A stretch of 64,000 nucleotides of DNA from a virus. Shown here piece after piece: positions 5,324-60,814 of the stretch (its first letter is position 1; every line of letters begins with the position of its first letter). The translations under genes were made by a program, and so were the position numbers. The stretch is from positions 12,247-76,246 of the IMG/VR virus record IMGVR_UViG_3300028835_002196, one strand, 5' to 3'. The notes below the pieces were generated by a model that was not told the origin of the DNA, made no database searches, and worked only from the letters and a program-made list of their open reading frames with translations.

Positions 5324-5578
5324 ATGACCGAAAAAAAAGCAAATCGACTAAAAAAGAACTTGGAACGCATACCGTACGGATCACTTGATGTTCGTAAGGT
5401 TAAGGGATTATTGCCTAAAAAAGACTGGAATCTTATTGTTTATGAAATGGATATAATTAAAAAAGAAAAACAACTGGTTCTCATACACATTGAATTTATG
5501 TTATCTTTTAAAATAAAGCATTGTTGCGGTCTATTAATTGAGGCTGAGGGTAATATTCCTTATTATACATTATATTAG
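5324..5578 (+). CDS. Hypothetical protein, possibly the N-terminus of the downstream MTase
   Basis: 84-aa ORF whose TAG overlaps the motif-I frame of the C5 MTase. Confidence 0.55.
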   Translation: MTEKKANRLKKNLERIPYGSLDVRKVKGLLPKKDWNLIVYEMDIIKKEKQLVLIHIEFMLSFKIKHCCGLLIEAEGNIPYYTLY

Positions 5579-7158: not shown

Positions 7159-7547
7159 AAAAATTATCAAGCACAGTAAAAGAAAGAGCTGAAAAGGCAC
7201 ATGATATTGAAAAATTGATTGATCAGCTTAAAGTTATGTTGCTTAGTATAAGCAATAGAATTAAGGAAAAAAAAGCAAAGAAAGACATTACAATTATCCT
7301 GGCCGATTGGCAAGGTTGTGATAGAACTACATTTAACCGGGATAATTTTAATGCAATAAAAAAGGCTGAAGGAGAAGCTATTGGAGCAAAGTCTTATGAA
7401 TCATGGTTAATTGCCCAAGATGCAATTTTACAAATCATATTTTCATTCCTTGAATCTGAATTAGATAGGTTAGTAGAGGCCTATAACGATCTTGAACACC
7501 TGGAAGTGATAGAAGAACCAGAATTTGAAGATTTAGGACAAAAATGA
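7155..7547 (+). CDS. Hypothetical protein
   Basis: ATGA-coupled to the MTase; helical 130-aa ORF. Confidence 0.65.
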   Translation: MKKLSSTVKERAEKAHDIEKLIDQLKVMLLSISNRIKEKKAKKDITIILADWQGCDRTTFNRDNFNAIKKAEGEAIGAKSYESWLIAQDAILQIIFSFLESELDRLVEAYNDLEHLEVIEEPEFEDLGQK

Positions 7548-7840
7548 AATCAAACCATCCCCAGGATATTTATGCTGAAACAATACCAAAGCCCCGTAAC
7601 AAGGGCATAGGTCAACTTCCGCATTGTATTGATTGTGGAGAATATAAAGACGAACCCATGATCTATGCCGGCTTGGGTGGTAAAACAGCTCATTGTAAAA
7701 AATGTTTATTGAAAATGGACCCGGAAAGCGAATTATTCCCCGTTCATATCAAGCACAAAGGAATGTTGGTTAAGGAAGCTATCGAAATCCTTAATAAGCA
7801 TGTAAGTAAAGATCAAACAGGACAATTATTATTGTTTTAA
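7544..7840 (+). CDS. Hypothetical zinc-finger protein
   Basis: CIDC...CKKC; ATGA overlap with the previous gene. Confidence 0.6.
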   Translation: MKSNHPQDIYAETIPKPRNKGIGQLPHCIDCGEYKDEPMIYAGLGGKTAHCKKCLLKMDPESELFPVHIKHKGMLVKEAIEILNKHVSKDQTGQLLLF

Positions 7841-7854
7841 CTAAAATAAAAATC

Positions 7855-8133
7855 ATGAAACACAAATTATCAGGTAATGCAGAAACAAGGGAAGTTCATC
7901 TTGATGGTGAATTTCTTGACCCTAAACCAAGCCAAAAACATTACAATCATTCTCCCGATGGATTTAATTGGGGGTATGGTGGTAGTGGGCCGGCACAACT
8001 CGCACTGGCAATAATGCTAAAACTAACCGGCAGGGCAATCGGCAAGGCCGAAGGTTATCAAGAGTTTAAATTTAGAGTAATTGCAGCAATCCCAGGTGGC
8101 GAAGATTTTGACATTGAATTTAATTTAAAATAA
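7855..8133 (+). CDS. DUF6166-like protein
   Basis: NHSPDGFNWGYGGSGPAQLALA signature. Confidence 0.75.
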   Translation: MKHKLSGNAETREVHLDGEFLDPKPSQKHYNHSPDGFNWGYGGSGPAQLALAIMLKLTGRAIGKAEGYQEFKFRVIAAIPGGEDFDIEFNLK

Positions 8134-18513: not shown

Positions 18514-18741
18514 TTAATTTTCGGATGTAAAAATTTTCAACCTGATTGCTTTTGCCAATTCTTCCAGTTTTTCTGCAAGCAGTTTAGGTGTAAGTGTCTT
18601 ATCAAAAGTGAGAAAAAATGAGTGATCTTTTTTCATGCCTGCCATTAAAAATAATCTTGATTTCTCCTTGGTAAGTTGCTTCGCCCATTTACTAGCCCGA
18701 TCATTATTAAATATTTCTGTTACTCTGTCTTCTCCTATCAT
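18514..18741 (-). CDS. Hypothetical protein
   Basis: 75 aa; ATGA coupling. Confidence 0.6.
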   Translation of the reverse strand: MIGEDRVTEIFNNDRASKWAKQLTKEKSRLFLMAGMKKDHSFFLTFDKTLTPKLLAEKLEELAKAIRLKIFTSEN

Positions 18742-26921: not shown

Positions 26922-29900
26922 TTATCTTTTAGGCCCTATCTTCCCTCTTCCTGCTTTCTTCCTGGCCTTTCTCTTTTTTTCTTTTTCCAGGTGTTCTTCG
27001 TAAAAATCCCTGGTCTCCCACTGGCTTCTCAGGTTTTCTGCATAATCAATAACCTCGAGACCAAACCTCTGTCTTTCCTTAGCACCGCCAATATCAAAAT
27101 ACTGATTCAGTAATTCACTTAAAGCCCTGTATTCAGGCTCATAAAACAACTCATGTTTACGAGCTGTCTTCATTATCCATTGCACATCTTTAGACCCATA
27201 AACATTCGAATATCTAAACTGCCCCGTATCAGACCAATCCCATTTATGCCGGCTATCCTCTGCCTTGCCTCTTACTGCCTGATAGGTATCAATAAATTGT
27301 TTACCAAAATAAGTGAATTGAGCATTAACAAAAGCATCAACCATTCTTGCATCAATGAAAGGTGGTTTCTCAGGTGTTCCTTTCTTGCGAAAGAAATTGT
27401 TCATAAACTGTGTCATATTCATAACATCCTTGCCAAACTGACTGGCCCATTGTGTATTTCTTTCACGAATATCCTTATAAAATTCCTCCGGAGGAATATA
27501 ATATTTATCTCTAAAAAAATCTTTCTTCGTAGTAATAGCCGTTATACCACCAATAGCAGAGCTTAAATTATATAACCTGAACGGAAATATCAAATTAAAC
27601 AAAGTCGAATTAATATAATTATCGAATGCCTTATCATCTCCCAAAATAAACTTATCAGCCAATCGCTGCATACCACTTGATAAAATTCCCAAGTCAAAAG
27701 CTCTCGGAATAGAAATCCATCCCCCCCAGGGTGTTGGAAAATTCATAAACAGATCTCGCCTCCACGCCGGGAACTGAAAATATTCTTTTCTTTCACGATC
27801 ATCCAACATTGCCATTAATGATGTCTGCAAGGCTGTAATAATGGCTCCATAAATGGCCAATCTAATAGTTGTACCACGTGGATTCTGCCTCATCTTCCAA
27901 ATACTCTTCGCCTGACCTCTTATCATGGGATTGAGAAATGGTACATTAGGAGCTATCCTGCGAATATAATACCCCATCACACGAAAATCCATTATTCTTC
28001 TCCCCTGTAACCCAGCATAAAGCAAAGCATCATAATCTACCATCCCTTTCTTTTTAGCCCATCTATAAGAACTGGAAAAAATAGCCGTACGTGGCTTTCT
28101 TTCACCTGACTTCATAAATCTTTCATATCCCCGATCCCATAATACTGTTTTAAGGTGTTCGGGATTCATGACAATAACAGATTTATCCTTTAATAACTTG
28201 GTCATAGCAACCTTCATTAAACCATAATACTGCCTATCTGTTGTCAGGTACCATCCAAACTGACCGCCCCCCATACGATTCATCATTTCACTCGACCACT
28301 TCTGCATTGCCGGGCTAAACCAATCCTTGAGCTTAAACCTATGATCATGCGTTATACCAGCAAACGACACGTCCCGTTCAAAATTTCGTAAATAAAATAC
28401 CAGGTTAAATACTACCGAAGATCTAAATATGGTGGCCATCTGAGAAAGTATGGGTATGGGCACGGATTCGGCTACATTCATCATGCCATTATAAAATACC
28501 GGATCTACCTGCCACCACTGCTGCTCACCATACTTTTTAAATCCAACACTTTTTTCTAATTTATAAGGCACTCTCCTGGCCAGTTCTGCCAATCCTGAAA
28601 TCTCGGAAGAATACATCTCCCTGGTAGGAACAAACCATTTGAACAGTTGTACTTTATAATTATTATAATCGCTTTCCTGGATCGTCCTTGTAGTTAAATA
28701 CAATAACTGGTCCAGGGGATCTTTAATAAACTTAGCACTTCCTTTGGCCCTGTGCATCCAGTCCGGAGTAAATTGAACACCTATCCCTCTCCTGTTACCC
28801 GGCCTCATCTCTGTTTTACGTATATCCCACGCCTCATCAGGGCTCATTACCATTAATCTTGCCAGGGCAACGTATGATAAGTTTCTTTCTCTTATATACT
28901 GCCCGGCCTCCTGGGATAACAAACCGGATCTAATCGAATATTCAATTAAATTATCTCCAAAAAAACGATACTTTCTTGCAAACTCCTCCCATCGCTTAAC
29001 ATCTTCTTTATTTTTCCTAACCTCTTTTAAAAGAGCTTGTGCTGCTTCATTATCAGTAACAAATCCTCCTCCAATGCCCGTATACACTCCTTTCGAAAAA
29101 TCATATCTTTCTATGGGGAAATACAAATCTTCATCGCTAATATTATTTTCTATAACCCATTCAGTTATCCTGTTTATATGTACGGCATACTTTTCTGCTA
29201 TTGCCGGATGAAGCTTTAATATTTCAAGAGGAGGTAATTTATCACTATAATTTTTCAAATCATACATTACCTGATCACCCTGTATCTTCCACTCCAATTC
29301 AATAGACCTTTCAGCAATCATATATGTCATCGCATCATGTAGATCTTTAACAAATGTTCCATAATCTGTTTTATCAAGATCATCCAACATCCATACGATA
29401 TTAACCTGTTTATTCGTTACGGGATCATACACCGTTTTTCCATCGGGCATTTGCATACCATGTTGAAATATGGCCACCATCTTATCATTGTGACCGGCAA
29501 GCAGTGATCCCATGTACAGGGGATTTTCACTCGGTTTTACGTTAAGAGGATCCCATGCCTGTACCACGTTCTTTACAACTCCCTGCCGTTTCAAGGCCTC
29601 AACAAATGCTTTCTGTACAGGCCACATATCATTTGATAACCCCCAAACAATCTTATCAGCCCATCCCCACTTCAGGCCAAGGGCATTATTATCTTTTCTA
29701 TGTAAAAAGTTCTCAAACAGGGATTCCGGCTGCTCTTTTAATTTAAAATCAGCATGAGATTGGGCACGCTCCATCCATGTCGATCCAACATACCTGCGAA
29801 TATCATCACCAAATTCCCGGATAACTTCCAAAAACTCATCAGGAACTCTTTCTTTAAACCATTCCGTTAGCTTTGGAAAATCTTTTTCTGTTTGATTGGG

Positions 29901-32900
29901 ATTAATAATCCAGGCCCTTATATATTCAGCCGTTCCCTCAGATCTACGATAAGCCTCTTTATCTAAAGTATCCTTTTTAGGCTTACTGCCATATTTCCAC
30001 AACCTGCTTAATTCATGATTTATATCGGGGATCTTCCAGCTCACTTCCGGACCAACTATCCCAAACATATCATCAATGCGATGACCTAACTCATGTGCTG
30101 TAACGTCAAGATCTCCCTGGTATTTCAAAATAATCATCTCCTCGCCAGGTACATAAAATCCCGCAATTCCTTTACGTGGTTTCTGATACCTGACACCTGC
30201 CCGGAACTTTCGTGGTATAGATAATTGTATTTCCCATATCTTTTTTGGAGGACCTTCACTTGGCAGAGGATCAGGAGATATTCTCCCAACCCTTCCCCCG
30301 GTGTTATTCTCATACTGAATATCCTCGTCAGGTGGTGGTAAGTCGCTATCACGCTTAATGGCCGTGGCTGTGTCAATAAAATCTTGTACGACACTTGACT
30401 GTCCATGAAGAGCCTCAGCTGCATTAAACGCACTCTGAGCAACCTTCTCCGGCCTCGTTGCAATGGTAAGCCTGTAATCATCTAATATCTGTAATACCTC
30501 ATCTAACTGACTTTCCCTAAAAAAGCCGTTAAAACTTTGATTGATCTGTGTAAATTCACCATCAAACATGATAGCCGGTAACTTGCTTTTACTGGCATCC
30601 CAATATTTAGCTCCTTTCTCCCTGCTTGACGGCACACGTAAGGTATATAATTGATCATCTGTATAATCACCATAATTATATTCCATAGATCTCGGTATTC
30701 CCTTCATGATACTAACATGGCCATCCGTGGTTTCTACATAATCCTTGTTTGCCAGGGCCAGTATAATATTTTTTGCATCCTTGATGGCGATTGTTACCAT
30801 TTTATCCACACGGGGCTCAAAATTATCAGGCAATAATATTCCCTTTTTTATCAATCCTTCTTTGGTGGTGAACTCAATCAACTTGCCCTTATAATCTTTA
30901 AATGCCTGCAGGATATTATTAGTAACAATATATCTTTTTACCCTTTTACCGGCACCCTTCAAATGATAATCCCATTGTTCTTTTGCACTTGTTCTCTCTG
31001 AAGGTGAGAGAGAATAGCTGCTCGCTATAATCGTGTCCAAATACTGATCCTTGCTCAGGGGGACCTGAAAAGATCTGCGACTATCTGCTGTTGCAAATTT
31101 AATTCTTATATTACTCGGGACCCATGGATTAAGTTTATTTACATTTATATCATAACCCACAACGTAACCCTTATTCATTCTTGTAATATTCCCGATATCC
31201 TCCTCGTAAGCAACTTCATAAATCTCCCCAACCTTGAAAAACTTAATATACCTGTCAATCGAATTTGTTAATAAAGTGTTATTTTTCTGAACAGTACTAA
31301 GTCTGTACCCTCTAAACTCTTCAAGCTTATTTATTTTATCTTTCCTCATCTCCTCAGCGTCCCTGACATTTTTCCCTTTCTCAACTGCCTCATCATACCT
31401 GCGATGCTCTTCCTTTATTTTAATATCGTACATCTCGGTAACTTCCTGCTGTTTCTTTTCAAGATTCTTCTGCAAGCCATCATAAATCTTTTTGTACGTG
31501 TCCTCTACATGTGCCTCAGCCGTCTTTCCCATAAGCTCTTTATTGATCAGATCATCAATCTCTTTAGCCATCATGGGGTTTTTCATACTATTAACATCCA
31601 TTAATTCCATAAAACTATCATCCCCGAAAGCACTAAACCCCCCTCGTCCACGAATAACAAGGTCTTTATTTATACTCTCTGCTTGCAAATCCAAGGCCTT
31701 AACCTCAAGATCATTTTGATCGGTTTCGTTAAGATAGTCAATCAAGGCCTTATACCGGTCTATAACGTCTGTATAAAATTCCTCTTGCTGCTGGGTTGTA
31801 AGTATCGATACTTCATTAGTTACTTTTCTTGTAGGATTCTCTGCCCTGTTCTTAGATTCATCAACTATACCCAAAGGATCACCGATAAGAGTATTAATAT
31901 CCAGGTTATCCCTTAAATATTCTTCAACAACCTGATCACCGTACTTATTCAAAATATCAACAATATCCAGCATCTTCTCGCTTTGTTTCTGATTTGATGT
32001 GGTGTTGGCATCAAGCATACCTATTTTCTGCCGGGTCATCATCAGTAGTCTTTGCTCTGCAGGCACAACACTACTTACATTATTATATATCGGATCCGTT
32101 ACCTGACCGGCACGATGAATCCTTCCTATCTTCTGCATATAGGCATTAATATCTGGCTCTGGTTGTACAATAGTCATCACCCTTTGCGACTGATCTTTAA
32201 AATCAACCGATGAATGAGCCGAAAGACCGGTAGACGAAGCCACGTTACCAAGAATTACCCAGCCAGGTTCATTATTAAACTTGCGTATAAGCTCATTTTT
32301 AGTTGGCCTAGGATTACTAACCAGTTTCCCCTTCATATAATTATCACCTGTAAACTCTATTTTTGTTTTTCTACCCGTAATTTCTGCAACCTTGTAACCT
32401 GCTTTTTCAATTTCATGTATCATTATATCAATTGGTGATGCAGATATTTCCTCGCCAATCTCTCTTATTTTCTCTAACAAAGCATAATATGTTTCCTGAC
32501 CGGCAGGGCCCAGAACTCCCGGATCTAAATATTCGGGATGAGGTACACCTGTTTCGTCCACAACTGTTGCTTTCATCACTCCTTTTAAGCCACGTTCCAG
32601 TACATAAGAAAAGTTTGTTGAAACTTCATCTCCCATACTGACTAATCCTTCATCCATCATGTGTTTGAACATGCTCTCCATAGTATTAGAAAATGCAACA
32701 AACGGCTTCTGCCCCTTCTCTAACTGTTGAATAATGGTAGGTGTTATATGTTGAGCTTTCAGAGTAAACAATAACTGGTTAATAACATTATAAATTTTAT
32801 TGAAATAAGGATAATTTTGCACGCCCATTCTTGTAGTTCCCCTTCTTTCCTCCATCTGCTTTCCTTCAGCCTTAAGCTTTGCATTCCACGCTTTAATAAT

Positions 32901-35552
32901 AGGCTTAACAAACATCTCCTGAAAACTGATTATCTGTCTCACCAGATCAGTAACGGCATCATATTTCTTCAATATATCCTTACCGGCATCATTAATCTTT
33001 CCTGTCTCGGGGTCCCTGCCGTAAACAATCCAGTTATTCTCTATACCCTTCATGCTACGCTCCCTGCGAATAAGCTGCATAGATTCCACAAGTTGTGAAC
33101 TAATAATCTCCATCAGGGCCGGCCCTCCAGCCTTTATAGCCTCAGCCAATTCTTCGTCTGTAAGAGCAGCCTCCCTGATCACCGTATTAACACCATATAA
33201 AGGCAAGTTGTCAGGACGTTTCGCATAGGTAGCTGATAAGAAAGTAGCTCCGTCAGCACTTCCTAGTACATCACGAAGAAAGAATCCAACATTGCTCTGT
33301 CCGCTAGCCAAATGACTTTCATCCATTACTACTATATTATTCCTTGCCAAATTCTCAAATAATGCTCTCTTCTTACGCCCATTCTCTGTTTTATCTGTCA
33401 TTAACTGAGAATAACTGACAAGTATAACATTATATTCCTCTGAAATATCACCCTCGTCCATTGCTTTATTTATGGCTGCCGGATCTGACTGGTATAATTC
33501 CCTGCCTTCGGGATCAGTAATGATCACGGCTCCGGAGCCATCTGCAAATGTCTTATTAAACATAAACGGCCTTAACTCACCAGATCCTATCCCTATCAGG
33601 TCACGATAAATATCCGAATACAGCCCCGCATCTTTAGTCATGAAGATTGGCCTGTAACCATTATTAACAGCATATCTCAAAATGCCTGCTGCTACCCTTC
33701 CTTTGCCAACTCCTGTCTGATCACCAATAATTACCGCCTCCCCATTACTGATATTATATAATGCCATGGCCAGGGCATCTATCTGCTCCGCATAAAAAGC
33801 CTTATACATATCTGCTCTTGAAGGATAATTGAGTTTTCCCATTACATAATTATCAAAATCCCCTATCTCCCCGGCAAGTTGGTACAGGGCATCTTCCATT
33901 TCGTTTGCCTGAGACAAAGGAATGACTGTTTCTCCCGATGGTCCTTTAGAAAGTGGTCTATATGGCTCTACGCCCCCTGCCTGTTTAATAATGAGTTGTT
34001 GCTTTCTCTGAGATCGTGGAGCCACTGCTCCAAGGACAATTCTTCCAACATCTCCTTCGCCTCTGATTGTTTCATCAGGGGTGGTAATCCCTTCACCGGT
34101 TGGATCTCCTGAAGTTCCGATGTCAGGTCTCGGAGTTCCTGGGATTCTACCAGGAATGCTACCAGCCTCTCCCGGTCCGGGTGAAACAGGTTGGGAAATG
34201 TCTCCTGGAATATTCGGGCCAGGTTCCTCTGGGGGACCAATAGTAGTAGGTCGTGTAGCTTTGGGTAAAGGAGGGGCCTCATCCGGTTGGGTCGGGGGAA
34301 TTTCGTCAACCCTTCTTTCAATCCGAATATCCGTATCACTTCCTCCCCCCTCATCCATGACGGGTCGTAATAATGCTTTTTCATTTGGTTTACTTATTAA
34401 ATCGTTAATATTTTTATAAACATCCCCCCAGGTAACTGCAGGGGTAAGACCTTCTTCCTTAAACATCGGAGCAACGCCTTCTGGTATGGGTTTACGCCCC
34501 CCAATCATTATAAGTCTTATAGGCCATGAAGTCCCCATACGACTATACAGATCTCCTTCAATATTTACAATACCATCAACAACATAGTTCTTATAAAGCC
34601 AGTTATAAAAATACAAATCACCGCCTTTAATTGCTCCGTCCTCATCCACTTCAAGATGCCCTCCGGCAATAATCGCGGCTTTTCCATCATCACTCATCAA
34701 ATCTAACCCGTTCATGGCAATAATATGTTCAATCCTCGATACATCAAACCCTTTCATCCTGATTTTTGGAACCGATCCAAAAGGAGGATTAAGAACAACG
34801 GCAGGAAAATGTCTCTCCATGAAATCGAAATCCGTATCCTTTACCGGTTTTGTCGCATCAAAGTTGGCGACCTGATTGAATCCCAATGTTTTTAAATTCT
34901 TATACCTGCTTTCTGACAGGTCATTAACAAACACCCTCAGGGGATCTGCATAAATAACCAACATTCCATTTCCTGCCGAATTATCACCTATATACTTGGC
35001 TGCATCTCCGTTTACATACTGGTGCATCATAAAAGCTAATGGTCCCGGAGTACTATATTGTTGCTTGCCCTTAACTTCACTGGTAAGTTTGCTTAAAGAA
35101 GGCTGAGTATTATAAAACGTAACCAACTTATTAAATCTTTCCTGTTCGGAAATATTCCTGTCCCTTGCTATATCCCTAAACCTCTCTGTAAATGCAAGCT
35201 CCATCTGGTCCCGGATCTCCGAATCGGTAAGAGTTAACCCGTAGCCCGGTAATAAGGCCTTAACTGTTGTGAAAGTAACCCTGCGACCGTTAAGAAGATC
35301 GTTCTTTATCTGATTACGTAAAAGGTATGACCTTGCATTTTTTAATTTTTCCCTGGCTTGGGCAACATCATTATCAAATAACGACTGTGCATGTTGCAGT
35401 CTTTTAGGATCTGCAACCTTATAAGAAAGAACTATCTGTTTTTGTCTCTCTGCAATAAGACTAAGCCAGTCTTCAAGGCTTGCCTTAAACCAGTCAACAT
35501 AATCACTAAGCCAGGTATTCCCTCCCATTTCCAAAGCCCCTGAAAGAGCCAT
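26922..35552 (-). CDS. Giant DarB-like polyvalent protein: N6-MTase + Strawberry-notch SF2 helicase + HExxH metallopeptidase-like + LPD38-like domain
   Basis: QQYSTP, SAGNG and NPPFG (MTase); GDQTGVGKG, DESH, SATYAK, STGLS and GRIHR.GQ (Sno helicase); HELGH (30081-30095); PFLNP...G and W.RD...WI.IPR.F (LPD38-like). Confidence 0.85.
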   Translation of the reverse strand: MALSGALEMGGNTWLSDYVDWFKASLEDWLSLIAERQKQIVLSYKVADPKRLQHAQSLFDNDVAQAREKLKNARSYLLRNQIKNDLLNGRRVTFTTVKALLPGYGLTLTDSEIRDQMELAFTERFRDIARDRNISEQERFNKLVTFYNTQPSLSKLTSEVKGKQQYSTPGPLAFMMHQYVNGDAAKYIGDNSAGNGMLVIYADPLRVFVNDLSESRYKNLKTLGFNQVANFDATKPVKDTDFDFMERHFPAVVLNPPFGSVPKIRMKGFDVSRIEHIIAMNGLDLMSDDGKAAIIAGGHLEVDEDGAIKGGDLYFYNWLYKNYVVDGIVNIEGDLYSRMGTSWPIRLIMIGGRKPIPEGVAPMFKEEGLTPAVTWGDVYKNINDLISKPNEKALLRPVMDEGGGSDTDIRIERRVDEIPPTQPDEAPPLPKATRPTTIGPPEEPGPNIPGDISQPVSPGPGEAGSIPGRIPGTPRPDIGTSGDPTGEGITTPDETIRGEGDVGRIVLGAVAPRSQRKQQLIIKQAGGVEPYRPLSKGPSGETVIPLSQANEMEDALYQLAGEIGDFDNYVMGKLNYPSRADMYKAFYAEQIDALAMALYNISNGEAVIIGDQTGVGKGRVAAGILRYAVNNGYRPIFMTKDAGLYSDIYRDLIGIGSGELRPFMFNKTFADGSGAVIITDPEGRELYQSDPAAINKAMDEGDISEEYNVILVSYSQLMTDKTENGRKKRALFENLARNNIVVMDESHLASGQSNVGFFLRDVLGSADGATFLSATYAKRPDNLPLYGVNTVIREAALTDEELAEAIKAGGPALMEIISSQLVESMQLIRRERSMKGIENNWIVYGRDPETGKINDAGKDILKKYDAVTDLVRQIISFQEMFVKPIIKAWNAKLKAEGKQMEERRGTTRMGVQNYPYFNKIYNVINQLLFTLKAQHITPTIIQQLEKGQKPFVAFSNTMESMFKHMMDEGLVSMGDEVSTNFSYVLERGLKGVMKATVVDETGVPHPEYLDPGVLGPAGQETYYALLEKIREIGEEISASPIDIMIHEIEKAGYKVAEITGRKTKIEFTGDNYMKGKLVSNPRPTKNELIRKFNNEPGWVILGNVASSTGLSAHSSVDFKDQSQRVMTIVQPEPDINAYMQKIGRIHRAGQVTDPIYNNVSSVVPAEQRLLMMTRQKIGMLDANTTSNQKQSEKMLDIVDILNKYGDQVVEEYLRDNLDINTLIGDPLGIVDESKNRAENPTRKVTNEVSILTTQQQEEFYTDVIDRYKALIDYLNETDQNDLEVKALDLQAESINKDLVIRGRGGFSAFGDDSFMELMDVNSMKNPMMAKEIDDLINKELMGKTAEAHVEDTYKKIYDGLQKNLEKKQQEVTEMYDIKIKEEHRRYDEAVEKGKNVRDAEEMRKDKINKLEEFRGYRLSTVQKNNTLLTNSIDRYIKFFKVGEIYEVAYEEDIGNITRMNKGYVVGYDINVNKLNPWVPSNIRIKFATADSRRSFQVPLSKDQYLDTIIASSYSLSPSERTSAKEQWDYHLKGAGKRVKRYIVTNNILQAFKDYKGKLIEFTTKEGLIKKGILLPDNFEPRVDKMVTIAIKDAKNIILALANKDYVETTDGHVSIMKGIPRSMEYNYGDYTDDQLYTLRVPSSREKGAKYWDASKSKLPAIMFDGEFTQINQSFNGFFRESQLDEVLQILDDYRLTIATRPEKVAQSAFNAAEALHGQSSVVQDFIDTATAIKRDSDLPPPDEDIQYENNTGGRVGRISPDPLPSEGPPKKIWEIQLSIPRKFRAGVRYQKPRKGIAGFYVPGEEMIILKYQGDLDVTAHELGHRIDDMFGIVGPEVSWKIPDINHELSRLWKYGSKPKKDTLDKEAYRRSEGTAEYIRAWIINPNQTEKDFPKLTEWFKERVPDEFLEVIREFGDDIRRYVGSTWMERAQSHADFKLKEQPESLFENFLHRKDNNALGLKWGWADKIVWGLSNDMWPVQKAFVEALKRQGVVKNVVQAWDPLNVKPSENPLYMGSLLAGHNDKMVAIFQHGMQMPDGKTVYDPVTNKQVNIVWMLDDLDKTDYGTFVKDLHDAMTYMIAERSIELEWKIQGDQVMYDLKNYSDKLPPLEILKLHPAIAEKYAVHINRITEWVIENNISDEDLYFPIERYDFSKGVYTGIGGGFVTDNEAAQALLKEVRKNKEDVKRWEEFARKYRFFGDNLIEYSIRSGLLSQEAGQYIRERNLSYVALARLMVMSPDEAWDIRKTEMRPGNRRGIGVQFTPDWMHRAKGSAKFIKDPLDQLLYLTTRTIQESDYNNYKVQLFKWFVPTREMYSSEISGLAELARRVPYKLEKSVGFKKYGEQQWWQVDPVFYNGMMNVAESVPIPILSQMATIFRSSVVFNLVFYLRNFERDVSFAGITHDHRFKLKDWFSPAMQKWSSEMMNRMGGGQFGWYLTTDRQYYGLMKVAMTKLLKDKSVIVMNPEHLKTVLWDRGYERFMKSGERKPRTAIFSSSYRWAKKKGMVDYDALLYAGLQGRRIMDFRVMGYYIRRIAPNVPFLNPMIRGQAKSIWKMRQNPRGTTIRLAIYGAIITALQTSLMAMLDDRERKEYFQFPAWRRDLFMNFPTPWGGWISIPRAFDLGILSSGMQRLADKFILGDDKAFDNYINSTLFNLIFPFRLYNLSSAIGGITAITTKKDFFRDKYYIPPEEFYKDIRERNTQWASQFGKDVMNMTQFMNNFFRKKGTPEKPPFIDARMVDAFVNAQFTYFGKQFIDTYQAVRGKAEDSRHKWDWSDTGQFRYSNVYGSKDVQWIMKTARKHELFYEPEYRALSELLNQYFDIGGAKERQRFGLEVIDYAENLRSQWETRDFYEEHLEKEKKRKARKKAGRGKIGPKR

Positions 35553-35572
35553 AAGCTCATTAGATTCATTTA

Positions 35573-38500
35573 TTATATCATTCTAAATATTATATCTTCA
35601 TCCGTAGATACTGTAATCTTATCACTTGGCTTGGGAATAACCTCGCCATCATAAATCTTTCTCGCCTCCAACCTCTCATTCCCAATTTTTATCATTCTCT
35701 CCGATCTCTCTTTCCATAAAGGATCTGCCGCCCCTTCCCTCTTCTCAAGTAAACTTACATGGGGGGCAGATTGTCCCCGGTCAAGATATTTTTGAGCATC
35801 TTCTGTTTCTCCCAAAGCATTACGTTGCCTGGCAATTTCATTATTTAATTCAGTCCACTCCTGCATGTGTTTAAATGGCGGAGGTGCAACGGCCTCGCCT
35901 GACTTGATCATTCCCCTCAACTGATCAACAGAAATCCCCAACATTGATCCTCCATAATTACTGTTATCCGAATATACAGCAACCATTATTTTCTGTCCGA
36001 TCGGCTTTTCAGCAAACAACGGGCCTCCGTATTTTTTCAACCCTTCATCATTATCATCCCACTCCTCTACACGAATAATATCTAAAACCTTTTGAGAATT
36101 ACCCTTACTCAGGTTAGGAAACAAAAAACTCTTACCAACAATATCCGAAAAATCCTCTTTCTTTGCTGGCTCGTGCATGGCCTGGTAGATCTCGCCAATA
36201 TCTTCTTGTTTAAATCGCCTGGCCTGGGCAATATCCATCTTCTCAAATACCGTATCTTCTACATCAGCTCCAATAGTTGTCATATATGCTCCATACCCTT
36301 GTTTAAGGTATGGCAACAACCTTTCAAGTTTCTCCTGGGTAACACTCCCTGCTACTTTTTTTATCATTTCCGGGAACTTATATATTTTATTCCCTACAAA
36401 ACGCTCGACTATTTTAGTGGCAACCTTAGCCAACTTAATCTCGTTAGGTGAATCCGTTTGTCTGCCTTCAGGAGATCCGTAAGAAAAATCAATATCTCCC
36501 AAAAGGCCTGTCATCTCGTCCAGTTCGACCGAAATATCTACTTCCCCTGGCTCTCCTTCCACCTTTTTGCCTTTAACACCAACTCCCTTAGTTGGAGTGA
36601 TGCCTTCTGCCGGTTCTTCCCCGGCTTTTTTACTTTGCTTTTCTTTTTCATATAAATATTCTTTTACAATTTGTCCTTCTTCCTCAGTAAATGGAAATCC
36701 TGTGAAATATTTCTCACGAATACTCTCAAAATCTTTTAATGTAATACTTTCAATGCCTTCCTCTTCCTTAAGCATCTCCATTACATCAACAAAATCAAAG
36801 TCTGATTTATCTATACCTTTTAAAAACGCCTGTTCATCTTCAATATACTTATCAATACTCATCCCCGCAACTTCCTTAAACCTGATTTCCAGTTCTTTCA
36901 TTACAGGATCCTTTGCCTCAGCCTTCTGCTTACTCGGATTCTCCATAATAAATTCCGCAATCATATCAGTAGTTACCTCGATGCCAAATTCCTCTGTCAT
37001 ATCTTTGGCAAGAACATCAATCTTGCTCGTGCCGGCAGCATATTGTTTGGTAATTGGATCTTTTTTTCCTATCCAATTTTTCATCATGGCCATACTAAAC
37101 TTATTAGGATCACCAAACTCCGCAAGACTTTTTTTTGTTACTTTTGTAGTTAATAACCTTTCCTGCCAGGGTACTAACTTAGGCTGATAATGCTCCTGGC
37201 CCATTTGATAAATCCTGACAATCTCCTCTGGGTCTTCACTCTTTTCTGATACCTGCTTTGCCAGGATCTCAAAATCCTGGGGTTTTGCTGGTGCTGGTTT
37301 CCCTTTTTTCTTTACTTCTGGTTCTTCAGGTTTTAGTTTCTTAAGTTTTTGTTCAGTTTCTATTAAATCTACTTTTACTTGTTTTTCAAATTCCACTAAA
37401 TCCTTTTCATTAACAACCTCCCGATACTCCTTATCTAACCTTGCTCCCCGCTTTATAATCTTATCCCTCCATTGTCGGGTAGGGTGTTCAAACACTATTT
37501 CTTCTCCTTCGGGAAGTTTTTCTCTTGTTTTTTCTATAGCAGCCAATAATTTTTCTCCCGCCTGTTTTCTTCCTTCAATGTATTCTTTTTCTTCAAGATA
37601 TTTTTCACCTAGCCACTTATTTATGAATTCCTCCATAGGTTGCTTGGCGTAAATATCTACCGGTATTTCACCGTTTAATATCTGATCAGCCAAAACATTA
37701 ACCTCATCCTCTATTTGCTCAGGTGTCATATCAGGATCTATCTCTCTGATCTTATCCCTTACAAGATCGTAAACGCCTTCCTGTAACTGCAAATTCTCAG
37801 TAGTTACTTCCTGAAAGGCTTTTTCTATCTTGTTAATCAATACTCCTTTTTGCTCTTTTAGCTTATCAATCTCACGTCTTTGAGTAAGATCCTTACGTCC
37901 CTTGAATTTCCCCAACTTCTCATCTATCTCCGTAATCTCTTTTTTCAACGGCTCTGTTTGTTTATCTGTCTCCATCCATTGATCAGTCCATTGCTGTCTA
38001 AAATCAGCTATTGTTCCTTCAAGAGCTTTCTGTGGAGGGCCAAACCTATTACCTTCCCACTCTTCAGCTTGTTTTATTTCCTGATAAACTTTCCTGTCGT
38101 AAGTCATCGTCAGTGTTTGCTTTGGAAACACGTCTCCCCCTTCACTCACGGGCAATGCCGGCAACATAGGAGCTTCCCCTTCCTTAAGACCTGCTTGCAT
38201 AAACTTACCAGCCTGCTTCCTCGTTTCCATTTCAAAATTAAACACTCCCCTGTTCTCATACAGATCCTCAAGTAATAGGTCTGTATGAAACCGGTTATTA
38301 AGAAGTATAGATTTCTCTGCCTTCCCTTCTTTCCATTTAGCCTGTGTCGGAAATTTGTTTTTTGCCCTGGTGTTCTCAACAACCGTTATGGCATTCTCAT
38401 AATTTTTTAACGTGCTTTCCAGCCAGCGATCTTCAAACGACTTGGCAATTTCGGATTTACTGGCTATTCTGGCCTCCTTAACACCCTCTGTAGCCAATGG

Positions 38501-41224
38501 CCCATCGTATATATCCAACCATCTATACATTCTTTCTGCTGTATTGGTCATTCCTAAATCTTCTGCTTGGCGGGACGTTTTTTTCACTCGATCAAAATAC
38601 TTAGGACTGAGGTACGAATACCACTTACCCCCCAGGGGATCAGAAAGTTTTTTTGCAGATGTTACTGAATATAACTGTAAAGGCCCAAATAATAAAGTAT
38701 TAAATATCATCTCAGCCACCACTCTCTTTCCTGCCTCATCCATATTGCCCCACTGCTGATCCCAGGCCTCTTTAAAACTTTTATCCGCCGAAAAAGCTGC
38801 CTCAACAGCATTCGCAGTAGTAAAACCTACCTCCATACCTGCTGTTGTTCCCAAAGTTGTTTTCAGTAAAGGCCCAAATATCCTGCCTACCTTACTTTTA
38901 AACTTAATCCTGTCCGTAAGAGTATGTGTTGCATTCATCCCTGATATAACACCAGGGGCAAATCCTCCTATACCAGTGAATATTGCCTCGTCCAATAAAA
39001 ACTCTAACGCTATAGCACTTGACCTGCTTATACGTGTCGGATTAACCTCTTTTATCACCTCCCAGCCAATAGGAACGGGATCTTTTAAACCAATAACTGA
39101 TTTCGCTGCTTTATGGGGTACTGGTTCTTCGCCCCCCCATCGAACAATACCGGGCAAGCCTTTAGGAGCTTGTCTTGTTCCTAACGGAACTGGTTTGACT
39201 GTAGGTGCTTTATAAAAAGGATGCCTTATAATTTTATAGCCGTTCTTTAAACGCCCCAGCTTCATTGCTCCTTTTGCAAACTTTGACACTCCCGATGATA
39301 TAAAGAGTAATGGAAGATGAGGTACCGCACTGCCTGTAAACTCAAAAAATCTTTCCCACATAACCGGCTCAATATGTTTTTTCTCTTCATCTGTAAGCCC
39401 AACCGTCTCATTACCAATCTGTGCAAGTTTATGTATGATCGCAGCATCTATAGATCCAGGACTAGCCTCAAGTACATTTTCCTCCCCAACAAATGAATGT
39501 AAGGCAGCATTACCAAATATCTGTGCATAATAACCGTCTTCTTTTGTAATATCCATAGGCCCTACATTCTTCATGGCCATTAACGCATGTGCCTGAAAGT
39601 CTGCCTGTGCATATCCCTTATTGCGTAAAAGATCATCATACTGTTTCCTTGACATTTTCCCTGTCTGAAAGGCTGCCTTTCCGTCTTCAAGCCTTCTTTG
39701 CCAATATTGGAGCTTAACGAAACTATCGGCCATACGGTCATCAAGCTTTTCTTGTGGTGTTGGTGTTGGTTTCGATGTTGGTTCTTTTTTCTTCTCTGCC
39801 ACCTCTTTCCACGATCCAGCAGCAAATTCAACGGCTTTCTCTTTATCATCAAAAGCAATATAATTTTTTTCATCCAAAGCCGTTTTCATAGGATCTTCAG
39901 GCTCATCCCACTTGCCATCTTTATATGTAAGGGTAGGGTAAACATAATATTTTCCATCAGCCTCCCCCCACGCCATTAAGTGAGATGATTCCGTACCATC
40001 TTCGTTCTTTCTTACCGGACCTTTATCACCTTGTAATATCCTTTTAACAAACGGAACATTTTTATTATCACGTAATACTTTTTCTGTGTCAGACAATTCC
40101 CCTTCTTGCTCCTTGTTATATTGACTGACCCGGCCCTTAATCCCCTTAGCTTTTTGAATATAGTCAAGCTGTGCCTTCTTCCAGGCATCTGTACGATCCC
40201 AATAACCGATCAGGAAATCCGATCTTGGTATCTCATCTTGTTTCCCTACCCAATCTTCGGCCTCTTTGCGTAACCCCTCTACCCTTACTCCTTCCTCGTC
40301 AAGTGTCTTGATCTCTTCCCCTAATTCTGTAATCTCTGGATCTTCCTCTGCCGGCACCTGGGCTGTCTCGAATAATTCTTGCATATAGGCAACAATATCC
40401 GCTTCCTCTACTGTTTCCGGTTTCCGGTGTAATCCTGTCTCCGGATCTAAAAATGTTCCCTCTTCCCATCCATCAATATAGGGCTCTGCCTCTTTCCTGG
40501 CTACTTCGGGTATATTGGTATATTTAAGGGTGGTTTCTTTCTCCTTGCTCACAAGCTCACTTTCTGCATATTGCTGAAGCATGGGTATAATCTTCTTGAT
40601 CACATGATTATCGTAACCATCCTCTTTTAATTTTCTCTCGATACGTCTCTTTTCCCCTGTATGAAGAATAGACAGAAACCCTCCCGGATTATCTTTGATG
40701 TAACCAAACTCCTTATCGCTCATTAGATCATTAAACGCCTTCTCTGCCTGCAGTGCTGTTTCTGCTCGCCCCTCCTTAAGGGATTCTCGCTCTCTAATAC
40801 CCAATTCTGTTACCTGCCCTTTTATGGCATCTGCTTCGGCAATAAATGTTTGAGGGGATATTCTTGGCAGTATATCTTCAATTCCGACTTGGAGTTCATC
40901 ATACAACTTTTCTGTCTCTCCGGCCTGGTAATCTATTGGAGAAAAATCTCTCTCCTTTTTTTTTGGTGAGGCCTTACCTAAATTCTCGGCAATAAAACTT
41001 TCTCTGATCCGATCAAATTCAAGTTGATCTTCTAATCCCTGGTGCTTAAGATATGGAGTTGTTATCTTATCAAAAAAACTTTCCAGCTCTGTTTTTTTAT
41101 CTTCCTCTACCATCCTGGAAAATTCAGGGCTATTAACTAAATTCCACTTGGCTTGATTGTACTGTTCTTTTTTTACATCAAACCCTTTCTGAAATTTCTT
41201 TTTATCGTCAACAATTCCATTCAT
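35573..41224 (-). CDS. Large internal virion (ejection) protein, possibly the N-terminal part of the giant protein
   Basis: 1883 aa, E/K-rich with a central hydrophobic G/A-rich segment; follows the tail genes. Confidence 0.65.
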   Translation of the reverse strand: MNGIVDDKKKFQKGFDVKKEQYNQAKWNLVNSPEFSRMVEEDKKTELESFFDKITTPYLKHQGLEDQLEFDRIRESFIAENLGKASPKKKERDFSPIDYQAGETEKLYDELQVGIEDILPRISPQTFIAEADAIKGQVTELGIRERESLKEGRAETALQAEKAFNDLMSDKEFGYIKDNPGGFLSILHTGEKRRIERKLKEDGYDNHVIKKIIPMLQQYAESELVSKEKETTLKYTNIPEVARKEAEPYIDGWEEGTFLDPETGLHRKPETVEEADIVAYMQELFETAQVPAEEDPEITELGEEIKTLDEEGVRVEGLRKEAEDWVGKQDEIPRSDFLIGYWDRTDAWKKAQLDYIQKAKGIKGRVSQYNKEQEGELSDTEKVLRDNKNVPFVKRILQGDKGPVRKNEDGTESSHLMAWGEADGKYYVYPTLTYKDGKWDEPEDPMKTALDEKNYIAFDDKEKAVEFAAGSWKEVAEKKKEPTSKPTPTPQEKLDDRMADSFVKLQYWQRRLEDGKAAFQTGKMSRKQYDDLLRNKGYAQADFQAHALMAMKNVGPMDITKEDGYYAQIFGNAALHSFVGEENVLEASPGSIDAAIIHKLAQIGNETVGLTDEEKKHIEPVMWERFFEFTGSAVPHLPLLFISSGVSKFAKGAMKLGRLKNGYKIIRHPFYKAPTVKPVPLGTRQAPKGLPGIVRWGGEEPVPHKAAKSVIGLKDPVPIGWEVIKEVNPTRISRSSAIALEFLLDEAIFTGIGGFAPGVISGMNATHTLTDRIKFKSKVGRIFGPLLKTTLGTTAGMEVGFTTANAVEAAFSADKSFKEAWDQQWGNMDEAGKRVVAEMIFNTLLFGPLQLYSVTSAKKLSDPLGGKWYSYLSPKYFDRVKKTSRQAEDLGMTNTAERMYRWLDIYDGPLATEGVKEARIASKSEIAKSFEDRWLESTLKNYENAITVVENTRAKNKFPTQAKWKEGKAEKSILLNNRFHTDLLLEDLYENRGVFNFEMETRKQAGKFMQAGLKEGEAPMLPALPVSEGGDVFPKQTLTMTYDRKVYQEIKQAEEWEGNRFGPPQKALEGTIADFRQQWTDQWMETDKQTEPLKKEITEIDEKLGKFKGRKDLTQRREIDKLKEQKGVLINKIEKAFQEVTTENLQLQEGVYDLVRDKIREIDPDMTPEQIEDEVNVLADQILNGEIPVDIYAKQPMEEFINKWLGEKYLEEKEYIEGRKQAGEKLLAAIEKTREKLPEGEEIVFEHPTRQWRDKIIKRGARLDKEYREVVNEKDLVEFEKQVKVDLIETEQKLKKLKPEEPEVKKKGKPAPAKPQDFEILAKQVSEKSEDPEEIVRIYQMGQEHYQPKLVPWQERLLTTKVTKKSLAEFGDPNKFSMAMMKNWIGKKDPITKQYAAGTSKIDVLAKDMTEEFGIEVTTDMIAEFIMENPSKQKAEAKDPVMKELEIRFKEVAGMSIDKYIEDEQAFLKGIDKSDFDFVDVMEMLKEEEGIESITLKDFESIREKYFTGFPFTEEEGQIVKEYLYEKEKQSKKAGEEPAEGITPTKGVGVKGKKVEGEPGEVDISVELDEMTGLLGDIDFSYGSPEGRQTDSPNEIKLAKVATKIVERFVGNKIYKFPEMIKKVAGSVTQEKLERLLPYLKQGYGAYMTTIGADVEDTVFEKMDIAQARRFKQEDIGEIYQAMHEPAKKEDFSDIVGKSFLFPNLSKGNSQKVLDIIRVEEWDDNDEGLKKYGGPLFAEKPIGQKIMVAVYSDNSNYGGSMLGISVDQLRGMIKSGEAVAPPPFKHMQEWTELNNEIARQRNALGETEDAQKYLDRGQSAPHVSLLEKREGAADPLWKERSERMIKIGNERLEARKIYDGEVIPKPSDKITVSTDEDIIFRMI

Positions 41225-59485: not shown

Positions 59486-60814
59486 TTAAGCCTGTCCTGG
59501 TCCTGAAATGTTTTCTTTCTCGGCCTGATAGATCTCATCCCTCTGCTGTTCTTGGTCTGATATAGTTCCTGCAGGTGGAATATCCGTGTTGCCACTACCA
59601 CTTGGATTCTCATAAAATTTATCCCACTCCTCAGCCGTTAAGCTCCTTACCTTTTCAGAGACAGCATGAAGTATTGCTGGCAAATTATCTGCCACCAAAT
59701 CCCTCTGCATCATCGAAAACACTTGCTTTACGTTTTCCTCATTAAGTTCCATTTGGTTCTCAATACAAAAATCTTTAGCATGTGATATAAGATTTTGCTT
59801 TGTCTCTGCAGGTATCTCATAATTGAGTATTGGGACTTTCCTCCCTGTTGGTGTAAGTGGGTAAGACTTCCATTTATCACCAATTTCCTTGGTTAAATTT
59901 TCCCAACCATTTTTAATCTGGGTTTTCTGTTCATCTGTCAGTACAGGCCCGCCCGGGGGTGGTGTTGGCGGAGTTTCCTCCGGCAACTTCACTCCCCCTT
60001 TTAATTCCGTCAATGACTGTCTCGCAGTCTCGGCATCACTTGCCAGGCTAATCTTATTAATTTCAAGCTCATCCGTATCCATCTCCTCATCATCAACCTT
60101 GTATTGTTTTTCGAATTTTGCTTTCAATTTACTTTCTTGCCCTATAAATTTAGGCTTATCCGTTATTTCTTTCAGTACCATCACCTCTACATCCCCAAGT
60201 TTACTTAGGTCTGTATTCATAAGCTTATTAAAAGCTTCGTAGTTCTGGATCCCTGTTTTCTTAACGAACTCGTTAAAAAGGGCAATACTCTCGTTAGCAT
60301 AACCAAAGGGTCTTCCTTCGGCCTGGCTCTTAAAGGTGGCGTTCGCCTCTCTCAGGGTACTAACCTCTTTTAAGGTATCGGTTATTTTTGCCTTCTTCAC
60401 ATCATCAAAGGATTTAAACTGATCGCCGAATATCTCATTCACGACCTGCATTCTTATTTCCTCTGTAGATGGAGAAGGTGGTGGTGTTCCTTCGCCTCCT
60501 GGTGGAGGTGTTCCTTCGCCTCCTGGTGGAGGTGTTCCTTCGCCTCCTGGTGGAGGTGTTCCTTCGCCTCCCGGTGGAGGTGTTCCTTCGCCTCCCGGTG
60601 GAGGTGTTCCTTCGCCCCCCGGTGGAGGTGTTCCTTCGCCTCCCGGGGGGGGTGTTCCTTCGCCCCCCGGTGGAGGTGTTCCTTCGCCTCCCGGTGGAGG
60701 TGTTCCTTCGCCTCCCGGTGGGGGTGTTCCTTCGTTTCCTACAACATCACCAATACTGCCTTTTAAGGCTTGAAATTCCGGGTCGCTTTCGTCAAATTTT
60801 TTTGGGTCTGGCAT
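59486..60814 (-). CDS. Scaffold-like head protein with an EGTPPPGG repeat
   Basis: Acidic, low-complexity N-terminus; between portal and MCP. Confidence 0.6.
   Translation of the reverse strand: MPDPKKFDESDPEFQALKGSIGDVVGNEGTPPPGGEGTPPPGGEGTPPPGGEGTPPPGGEGTPPPGGEGTPPPGGEGTPPPGGEGTPPPGGEGTPPPGGEGTPPPGGEGTPPPSPSTEEIRMQVVNEIFGDQFKSFDDVKKAKITDTLKEVSTLREANATFKSQAEGRPFGYANESIALFNEFVKKTGIQNYEAFNKLMNTDLSKLGDVEVMVLKEITDKPKFIGQESKLKAKFEKQYKVDDEEMDTDELEINKISLASDAETARQSLTELKGGVKLPEETPPTPPPGGPVLTDEQKTQIKNGWENLTKEIGDKWKSYPLTPTGRKVPILNYEIPAETKQNLISHAKDFCIENQMELNEENVKQVFSMMQRDLVADNLPAILHAVSEKVRSLTAEEWDKFYENPSGSGNTDIPPAGTISDQEQQRDEIYQAEKENISGPGQA
60477..60734 (+). repeat. 24-bp coding tandem repeat, 10 full copies plus 1 partial
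   Basis: GGTGGAGGTGTTCCTTCGCCTCC(T/C) unit encoding EGTPPPGG on the minus strand; variation only at synonymous sites. Confidence 0.95.

Follow-up and report, generated by a model that had tools for sequence, protein, structure and literature searches.

Phage polyvalent proteins, in which several unrelated enzyme domains are carried on one very long polypeptide, were described by Iyer, Burroughs, Anand, de Souza and Aravind in 2017; a methylase-helicase dyad is among the domain combinations reported, and the proteins are predicted to be packaged and injected (PMC5512222). The giant protein studied here, whose gene lies in a 64,000-nt stretch (the window) of the IMG/VR virus record IMGVR_UViG_3300028835_002196, resembles them in holding several unrelated enzyme domains, in pairing an adenine methylase with a SWI2/SNF2-type (here Strawberry-notch) ATPase, in having an LPD domain and a zincin motif, and in adjoining virion genes. 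It differs from them in that ~1,900 N-terminal residues are without a recognised domain and that it is larger than most of those described. DarB of phage P1, a virion-delivered methylase-helicase antirestriction protein that we compare by its description in PMC5512222 only, has the same pairing and a proposed cis action on incoming DNA, whereas the protein of the window has a Strawberry-notch helicase, extra domains and about twice the length. One relative, gp3 of the Bacteroides phage BS-TP4 (5,391 aa, PQ571277.1), is encoded by a single giant ORF and aligns from residue 2563 onward, at 33% identity across more than 1,600 residues, with the second of the two ORFs described below (ORF2); BLASTP of the first (ORF1) found no similarity to its N-terminal 2,560 residues, and its gene neighbourhood is unlike that of the window.

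In the window the giant gene is broken into these two ORFs, and the earlier note had proposed that they are joined by a programmed bypass or by a reversible duplication. The systems called to mind by such a junction are the bypass of T4 gene 60 and hops at "shifty stops", which like the junction have a take-off codon right before a stop and an identical landing codon downstream. Unlike them, the junction has no conserved gap, no hairpin and no conserved break, and its relatives have plain coding sequence in its place.

Results

Both ORFs are on the minus strand. ORF1 (35573..41224, 1883 aa) ends with ...TDEDIIFRMI followed by TAA, and comprises the N-terminal 1881 residues of a giant polyvalent protein plus two out-of-frame residues (MI). 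The frame of ORF2 (26922..35582) is open from 35582, right after a TAG at 35585-35583, and comprises the C-terminal 2885 residues; its first start codon, an ATG at 35552, gives a product of 2876 aa. The 90% cluster to which ORF1 (P0034) and ORF2 (P0035) belong also includes P0002, P0036 and P0033. P0002 and P0036 are proteins of 4,791 aa, each encoded by a single ORF, on a JGI contig of 78,376 nt and an ENA contig of 77,534 nt, respectively; nine further proteins of the window are identical in these two contigs, which were assembled independently and come from an essentially identical phage, and P0033 (4,583 aa) is from a partial third assembly of a near-identical one. Residues 1-1881 of ORF1 are 100% identical to residues 1-1881 of both P0002 and P0036, and the ORF2 frame, from DIINESNELM to its end, is 100% identical to residues 1907-4791 of P0002 (2,885 residues). 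Exactly at the break, between ...DEDIIFR and DIINESNELM, P0002 has 25 additional residues (IDGKRKKPIAEFALKHDPDRWRINL). We are thus highly confident that ORF1 and ORF2 together make up a single gene for a giant polyvalent protein of ~4,791 aa; the earlier claim that they form one giant protein is borne out by the sister assemblies, which code for it as a single 4,791-aa ORF.

On the minus strand, the sequence at the break reads ...ACG GAT GAA GAT ATA ATA TTT AGA ATG ATA TAA TAA ATG AAT CTA ATG AGC TTA TGG..., and the features reported from it earlier (the 9-nt repeat with its 17-nt spacing, the TAA stop and the ATA codons at +2 and +5) are all present. The GATATAATA direct repeat (35571..35596, with 8 nt between the copies) was read directly; its copies, at 35596-35588 and 35579-35571, each code for Asp-Ile-Ile (DII). 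In the intact gene these copies lie 90 nt apart, by arithmetic from the protein alignment and the contig coordinates, and their 17-nt spacing in the window is the product of a 73-nt deletion. A 9-nt repeat at this position is unremarkable for the window, which has 27 groups of perfect 9-nt direct repeats spaced by 30 nt or less (18 if one tandem array is set aside; 8.6 +/- 2.7 such groups expected from first-order Markov shuffles). The tandem stop TAA TAA in the ORF1 frame (35570..35575), made up of the TAA at 35575-35573 and a second in-frame TAA directly after it, is out-of-frame sequence laid bare by the deletion, its bases being read in the intact gene as ..ATA ATA AAT.. (DIIN). The last sense codon of ORF1 is an ATA (35578-35576), and ATA codons of the ORF2 frame stand at 35576-35574 (+2) and 35573-35571 (+5). 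The ORF2 frame is +2/-1 relative to that of ORF1, and taking out 17 nt fuses the frames as TDEDIINESNELM; the candidate junction peptides of a product that reads across are ...DEDIIFRMI-I-NESNELM and ...DEDIINESNELM.

The deletion point is at 35579..35581 (minus strand), where 73 nt of the sister assemblies are absent between AGAAT and GATATAATA, with an ambiguity of 1 nt (T, 35580). The size and place of the missing stretch were derived from contig coordinates and from the protein sequence of P0002, which has 25 codons (75 nt) at the break against 2 nt in the window; 73 nt equal 24 codons plus 1 nt, and so their loss shifts the frame. A Logan contig of run X1, which is probably the source sample of the record, is 8,561 nt long at a depth of 26.9 and matches window positions 34600-35580 at 5890-6870 and 35580-36600 at 6943-7963, leaving 73 extra letters at 35580 as the sole difference from the window over 2 kb. 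Reads that restore a single ORF had been named beforehand as the observation that would speak against recoding, and at the contig level this is what X1 gives, its contig being intact; since Logan contigs drop rare variants, the intact form is shown in X1 and a minor deleted allele could be hidden. The contigs of X2 and X3/X4, from two other studies and from relatives 88-90% identical, have the same 73-letter offset at the same place. Relocation of the 73 nt within the record was considered and rejected, as the 25-aa segment is encoded nowhere in its 76,246 nt. The 9-nt repeat was likewise rejected as mediator of the deletion: it would take out 90 nt in frame, whereas the real loss is 73 nt and is flanked by just 1 nt of microhomology, with no obvious biological or computational mechanism.

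Homologues with a single ORF retain the missing segment at identities as low as about 33%. It aligns in P0003 (75%), P0004 (54%) and P0005 (40%), and P1899 within it does not vary in homologues down to 33% identity. Both halves are matched in collinear order by single proteins in at least eight homologues, which are 4,035-5,364 aa long; at the IMG/VR loci L004 and L005 the gene is likewise one ORF, of 4,839 and 5,081 aa, respectively. The twin assemblies and all collinear homologues read through in one ORF, which settles against a conserved break the earlier question of whether relatives have one ORF or share the interruption at the same place. Relatives of ORF1 are nearly all giant proteins of 4,000-5,500 aa, and it is because of this length that a word-indexed search with the last 584 residues of ORF1, confined to proteins of 1,035-3,296 aa, returned nothing. 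A search of the "phages" DNA collection with the junction region gave no match, and scans with peptide patterns, of the ORF1 C-terminus and the ORF2 N-terminus in viral_contigs and likewise in metagenome_contigs, gave no confirmed relatives. An exact 24-mer was also sought in viral_contigs, a collection that seems not to include near-identical records, and had no match there.

The domains recognised in the giant protein lie in its ORF2 half. An N6-adenine methylase is indicated by motif IV, NPPFG (34776..34790, minus strand, as are the following), with motif I, AGNGML, upstream; motif IV is invariant in the homologue alignment and aligns with the methylase region of BS-TP4 gp3, and a homologue from an Acinetobacter phage carries the annotation N-6 DNA methylase. 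A Strawberry-notch-type SF2 helicase (31902..33740) is matched by Pfam PF13872 (E 9.5e-12) and by PF13871 (E 2.4e-16), each exceeding its gathering score, and has the motifs GVGKGR at 33713-33696 and DESH at 33323-33312. Further on is a zincin-type metallopeptidase motif, HELGH (30081..30095; H3735-E-L-G-H3739), which is invariant in six homologues of 33-82% identity and in whose region no Pfam model matched, and then LPD38, the large polyvalent protein associated domain 38 (27228..27788; PF18857, E 2e-10, 41.5 bits vs a cut-off of 27). ORF1 had no Pfam or PHROG match, a Pfam scan of small proteins that share a domain of it (P0002 residues 1320-1530) yielded no family for the domain itself, and a PDB sequence search with both ORFs returned nothing. 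By these motif and profile matches, domains with at least two quite different biochemical activities are predicted in one polypeptide, as is asked of a polyvalent protein.

The giant gene is downstream of genes for a portal (phrog_6547), a capsid-like protein (phrog_13704), a tail fibre and a muzzle C-domain protein (PF25729). To judge from these assignments it has the phage virion context that is also asked of a polyvalent protein, at the end of a putative crAss-like virion module; the portal and virion-protein PHROGs match, and the muzzle C-domain is just above its cut-off (29.1 bits vs 27). Domain content and position together suggest that the virion probably carries the giant protein and ejects it along with the DNA. 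Its methylase-helicase pair would then shield the incoming genome from restriction, a predicted antirestriction role.

Discussion

From the sequences compared, we consider it very probable that the break is a lesion or an assembly fault of one record, in which 73 nt were lost from a single giant gene, and not programmed recoding. The absence of 73 nt of conserved coding sequence at window position 35580 would interrupt the gene in this one record, and the missing bases would complete 25 codons, IDGKRKKPIAEFALKHDPDRWRINL. Their loss would shift the frame, expose TAA TAA and bring two DII-coding GATATAATA words to 17 nt from each other. In the phage as found elsewhere the ORF is unbroken, so that the protein would be made by ordinary translation and no recoding would be needed. 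An assembly artefact and a deletion variant in the sampled population appear about equally probable to us. As for the simple alternative offered in the earlier note, a 1-nt assembly error, an error of assembly may well have occurred, but its size would be 73 nt and not 1 nt.

If the 73-nt deletion circulates, the split could be real and either tolerated or adaptive, the 1883-aa N-terminal half and the 2876-aa enzyme half being made separately, with termination-reinitiation at the ATG 20 nt past the stop giving the latter. The 20-nt gap from stop to ATG resembles other junctions of this operon, distant polyvalent relatives have the methylase-helicase block in proteins of ~2,700-3,300 aa (P0007, P0009, P0022 and P0024), the record was assembled with the deletion, and the contigs are compatible with a minor allele. 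We nevertheless hold a real split to be improbable: the deletion is known from one record only and takes out a motif that relatives as distant as 33% identity retain, the contig of the probable source run is intact at its depth of 26.9, none of the shorter relatives begins at this position, and the reinitiation Met at 35552 is not conserved, being V, S and N in P0003, P0004 and P0005. The "poor A-rich context" previously ascribed to this ATG is uninformative, as nearly all genes of the window have an A/T-rich leader and no Shine-Dalgarno sequence. That the deletion is a real allele dominant in some samples is similarly doubtful; were it so, it would constitute a natural experiment on an injected giant polyvalent protein that has come apart into carrier and enzyme halves and still works, by way of translational coupling or of a low-level +2 hop on ATA.

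Clearly less probable than a real split is programmed recoding, in which peptidyl-tRNA-Ile on the ATA at 35578-35576 would hop +2 or +5 over the TAA onto another ATA, or a -1 shift would occur, giving a ~4,765-aa fusion at a set ratio. Short forward hopping at "shifty stops" is on record for reporter constructs in E. coli, and here matching take-off and landing codons do flank the stop, yet the stretch is A/T-rich, which makes the match weak evidence. Against recoding, the break is absent from every relative, the independently assembled X1 contig included, all of them and the twin assemblies being continuous with 73 nt more at this place, and a fused product would be without the conserved 25-aa motif. 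There is no X XXY YYZ slippery heptamer in the 7-nt overlap window 35582-35576 and no stimulatory RNA structure at the junction (MFE -17.3 kcal/mol vs a shuffle mean of -20.7, z +1.16), the genes of the window do not use SD sequences and no SD-like upstream stimulator is present, and the take-off codon is followed by the tandem TAA TAA. Least probable of all, to a degree that we would hardly reckon with it, is a reversible 17-nt duplication, in which gain and loss of one unit containing GATATAATA would act as a phase switch between fused and split forms. Removing 17 nt does restore the frame, but a form without them is seen nowhere, the repeat covers just 9 of the 17 nt, and such repeats are common in the window. 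The intact allele differs by a further 73 nt of conserved coding sequence (25 aa) and not by the loss of one 17-nt unit, which makes the 9-nt repeat a coincidental feature and leaves no role for a reversible duplication.

With the loss of 73 nt from one gene as our preferred reading, the main point is one of data quality, an apparent recoding site being in all likelihood a lesion of one database record. The annotated 1883-aa and 2876-aa proteins are best taken together as a single polyvalent protein of 4,791 aa, large and for the most part uncharacterised, that would belong to the injected polyvalent-protein class. Where giant phage ORFs break in metagenome assemblies, sister assemblies should be checked before recoding is proposed. 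A second broken ORF in the same gene family is provided by locus L006, which is identical to L004 across 14.5 kb save for one base lost in an A-run and, like the window, belongs to an otherwise identical pair of records in which one indel splits the same giant gene. The break of L006 is a 1-nt loss at another position of the gene, whereas in the window 73 nt are lost, with microhomology of 1 nt, and on comparison of these sequences sporadic breaks do arise elsewhere in this gene family.

A single giant gene at the junction

Read on the minus strand, the junction between the two large reading frames runs ...ACG GAT GAA GAT ATA ATA TTT AGA ATG ATA TAA TAA ATG AAT CTA ATG AGC TTA TGG..., with ORF1 (41224-35573, 1883 aa) ending in FRMI-TAA followed by a second in-frame TAA, and the ORF2 frame lying open from 35582, after a TAG, with its first start codon at ATG 35552 (2876 aa). 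The features described here in the earlier note are indeed present: the 9-nt repeat GATATAATA occurs at 35596-35588 and 35579-35571, its minus-strand copies 17 nt apart, removal of 17 nt fuses the two frames, and the ORF2 frame offers an ATA at both +2 and +5 from the ATA preceding the ORF1 stop. The repeat itself is unremarkable for the window, in which 27 groups of perfect 9-nt repeats spaced by at most 30 nt were counted, 18 of them outside one tandem array (Markov shuffles, 8.6 +/- 2.7). Likewise, ATG 35552 does have an A/T-rich leader lacking a Shine-Dalgarno sequence, but this is the rule across the genome rather than a peculiarity of this ATG. Almost all genes in the window start in this manner, as is usual in Bacteroidota and their phages.

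Queried with the first 560 residues of ORF2, a protein search gave as its top match a protein of 4,791 aa at 100% identity (P0002, encoded on a 78,376-nt JGI contig), followed by proteins of 4,632, 4,655 and 4,601 aa (75, 54 and 40% identity), all of them single proteins. The 90% cluster of P0002 has five members: ORF1 and ORF2 of the window, P0002 itself, a second 4,791-aa protein encoded on a 77,534-nt ENA contig (P0036), and a truncated copy on a 23-kb contig (P0033). Nine further window proteins are letter-identical on the JGI and ENA contigs, indicating that these sister contigs represent the same phage. Residues 1-1881 of ORF1 show zero substitutions relative to P0002, as does the whole ORF2 frame beginning with DIINESNELM; P0002 harbors 25 additional residues between these two parts (...TDEDIIFR-IDGKRKKPIAEFALKHDPDRWRINL-DIINESNELMALSG...). 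Since P0002 has 75 nt at the junction and the window 2 nt, the window is short by 73 nt. ORF1 and ORF2 are thus one giant protein, as the earlier note suspected, encoded by a single 4,791-aa ORF in the sister assemblies.

The same surplus was observed in DNA. A public run labelled a subsurface metagenome, which may be the source sample, contains 99% of the words sampled from a 2-kb stretch, and its Logan contig (8,561 nt, depth 26.9) has no substitution relative to the window. Window 34600-35580 aligns with contig 5890-6870 and window 35580-36600 with contig 6943-7963, a jump that places 73 additional contig bases at window 35580. Contigs of relatives ~88-90% identical, from two other studies, carry the 73-base surplus at the unchanged position; these runs are labelled sediment metagenomes. 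The outcome that the earlier note named as a refutation, recovery of a single ORF from the reads, is thus obtained in contigs, although a deleted allele could still exist in the sample.

Conservation of the intact gene

The missing 25 residues align with RIDSKFTRPIAEFGLKYDPQRWKDAL, SIDSSLKRPIAEFAKKFDPLRWDQNL and SLDRGKKKPVMDFAHQRDPELWDQAM of three homologues (P0003, P0004 and P0005, respectively), and P1899, inside this segment, is invariant in six sequences with identity down to 33%. The start Met of ORF2 is aligned with V, S and N in relatives, indicating that no initiation site is conserved there. In a full HMMER search, the last 1,200 residues of ORF1 matched mostly giant proteins. By BLASTP, both halves are collinear with at least eight homologues of 4,035-5,364 aa, and single ORFs of 4,839 and 5,081 aa occur in the IMG/VR relatives L004 and L005. 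A third IMG/VR relative, L006, shares with L004 an identical 14.5-kb giant polyvalent gene bar one A missing from an A-run (CTATTAAAGTAAAG against CTATTAAGTAAAG; 18627-18700). This 1-base loss splits the L006 ORF into 2,922 + 1,917 aa at another place altogether than in the window, so frame breaks are sporadic in this gene family. Gp3 of the Bacteroides phage BS-TP4 (L002:1511-17686) is likewise one giant ORF (5,391 aa). Its C-terminal part aligns with ORF2, with which it has the methylase-helicase and downstream region in common, whereas the first 2,560 residues bear no relation to ORF1. BS-TP4 is a cultured phage and could be used as a model system for experiments on this protein class.

Origin of the frame break

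The earlier note favored programmed bypass or a reversible 17-nt duplication. Programmed recoding is contradicted by the intact ORF in the twins, by the double stop that terminates ORF1, by the lack of an X XXY YYZ motif in 35582-35576, the sole stretch permitting fusion of the frames by a -1 shift, and by an RNA fold around and after the junction no better than that of shuffles (z +1.16). The ATA-containing bases proposed for stop-hopping read plainly as DIIN in the intact gene. A phase switch by a 17-nt unit fails as well, as the intact allele differs by 73 nt. The break is instead a private 73-nt deletion of this record, with an endpoint ambiguity of 1 nt only (T at 35580), and no other part of the record encodes the missing 25-aa segment. 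Mediation by the GATATAATA words was dropped, since recombination between the copies would take out 90 nt, in frame. Whether the segment was lost by the assembler or in a phage subpopulation is close to an even call, and under either origin the loss is not a programmed feature.

Gene setting and proposed function

The IMG/VR virus record to which the window belongs is 76,246 nt long and is rated complete. Along the minus strand, genes for a portal (phrog_6547) and for a capsid-like virion protein (phrog_13704) are followed by those for a tail fibre carrying an S74 chaperone domain and a protein of 1,198 aa bearing the crAss muzzle C-terminal domain, by a 520-aa ORF, ORF1 and ORF2, and then by lysis and replication genes (primase-helicase, RecE-like, RecT-like). 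Between the portal and capsid-like genes sits a 442-aa ORF (59486-60814, minus) in which a 24-nt unit (GGTGTTCCTTCGCCTCCTGGTGGA, with variants) is repeated in tandem (60483-60723).

ORF2 harbors Strawberry-notch-type helicase (PF13872, PF13871) and LPD38 (PF18857) Pfam domains, together with an adenine-methylase motif (NPPFG) and a HELGH motif that is invariant. It thereby shares its domain make-up, methylase-helicase dyad included, with the 'polyvalent proteins' described from phages and conjugative elements (PMC5512222). ORF1 has no match in Pfam, PHROG or PDB. Its residues about 1320-1530 (window 36500-37300) form a domain lacking a Pfam model, seen in small stand-alone proteins of 166-266 aa and in other polyvalent proteins bearing PBECR1 or InPase domains, and may constitute an undescribed polyvalent-protein module.

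We infer that the single 4,791-aa polypeptide would be produced late, alongside virion proteins, packaged, and then leave the virion together with the DNA on ejection. Modification of the incoming genome would fall to the adenine methylase in its coupling with the Strawberry-notch ATPase, by analogy with what is proposed for P1 DarB-like dyads (PMC5512222), and processing of the polyprotein might be the role of the putative HELGH zincin domain.

Start of the C5 methylase

At window 5554-5731 (+), motif I of a C5 methylase (DLLAGAGG) sits upstream of any ATG, GTG or TTG, and the gene call of 475 aa that begins at ATG 5731 was found in this record only. An 85% identical protein of 541 aa (P0086) has a Met start 18 residues ahead of motif I. 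The C5 methylase may thus have a start that is non-canonical, or the record may carry a second lesion here; the 84-aa ORF upstream of it is identical in the sister contigs.
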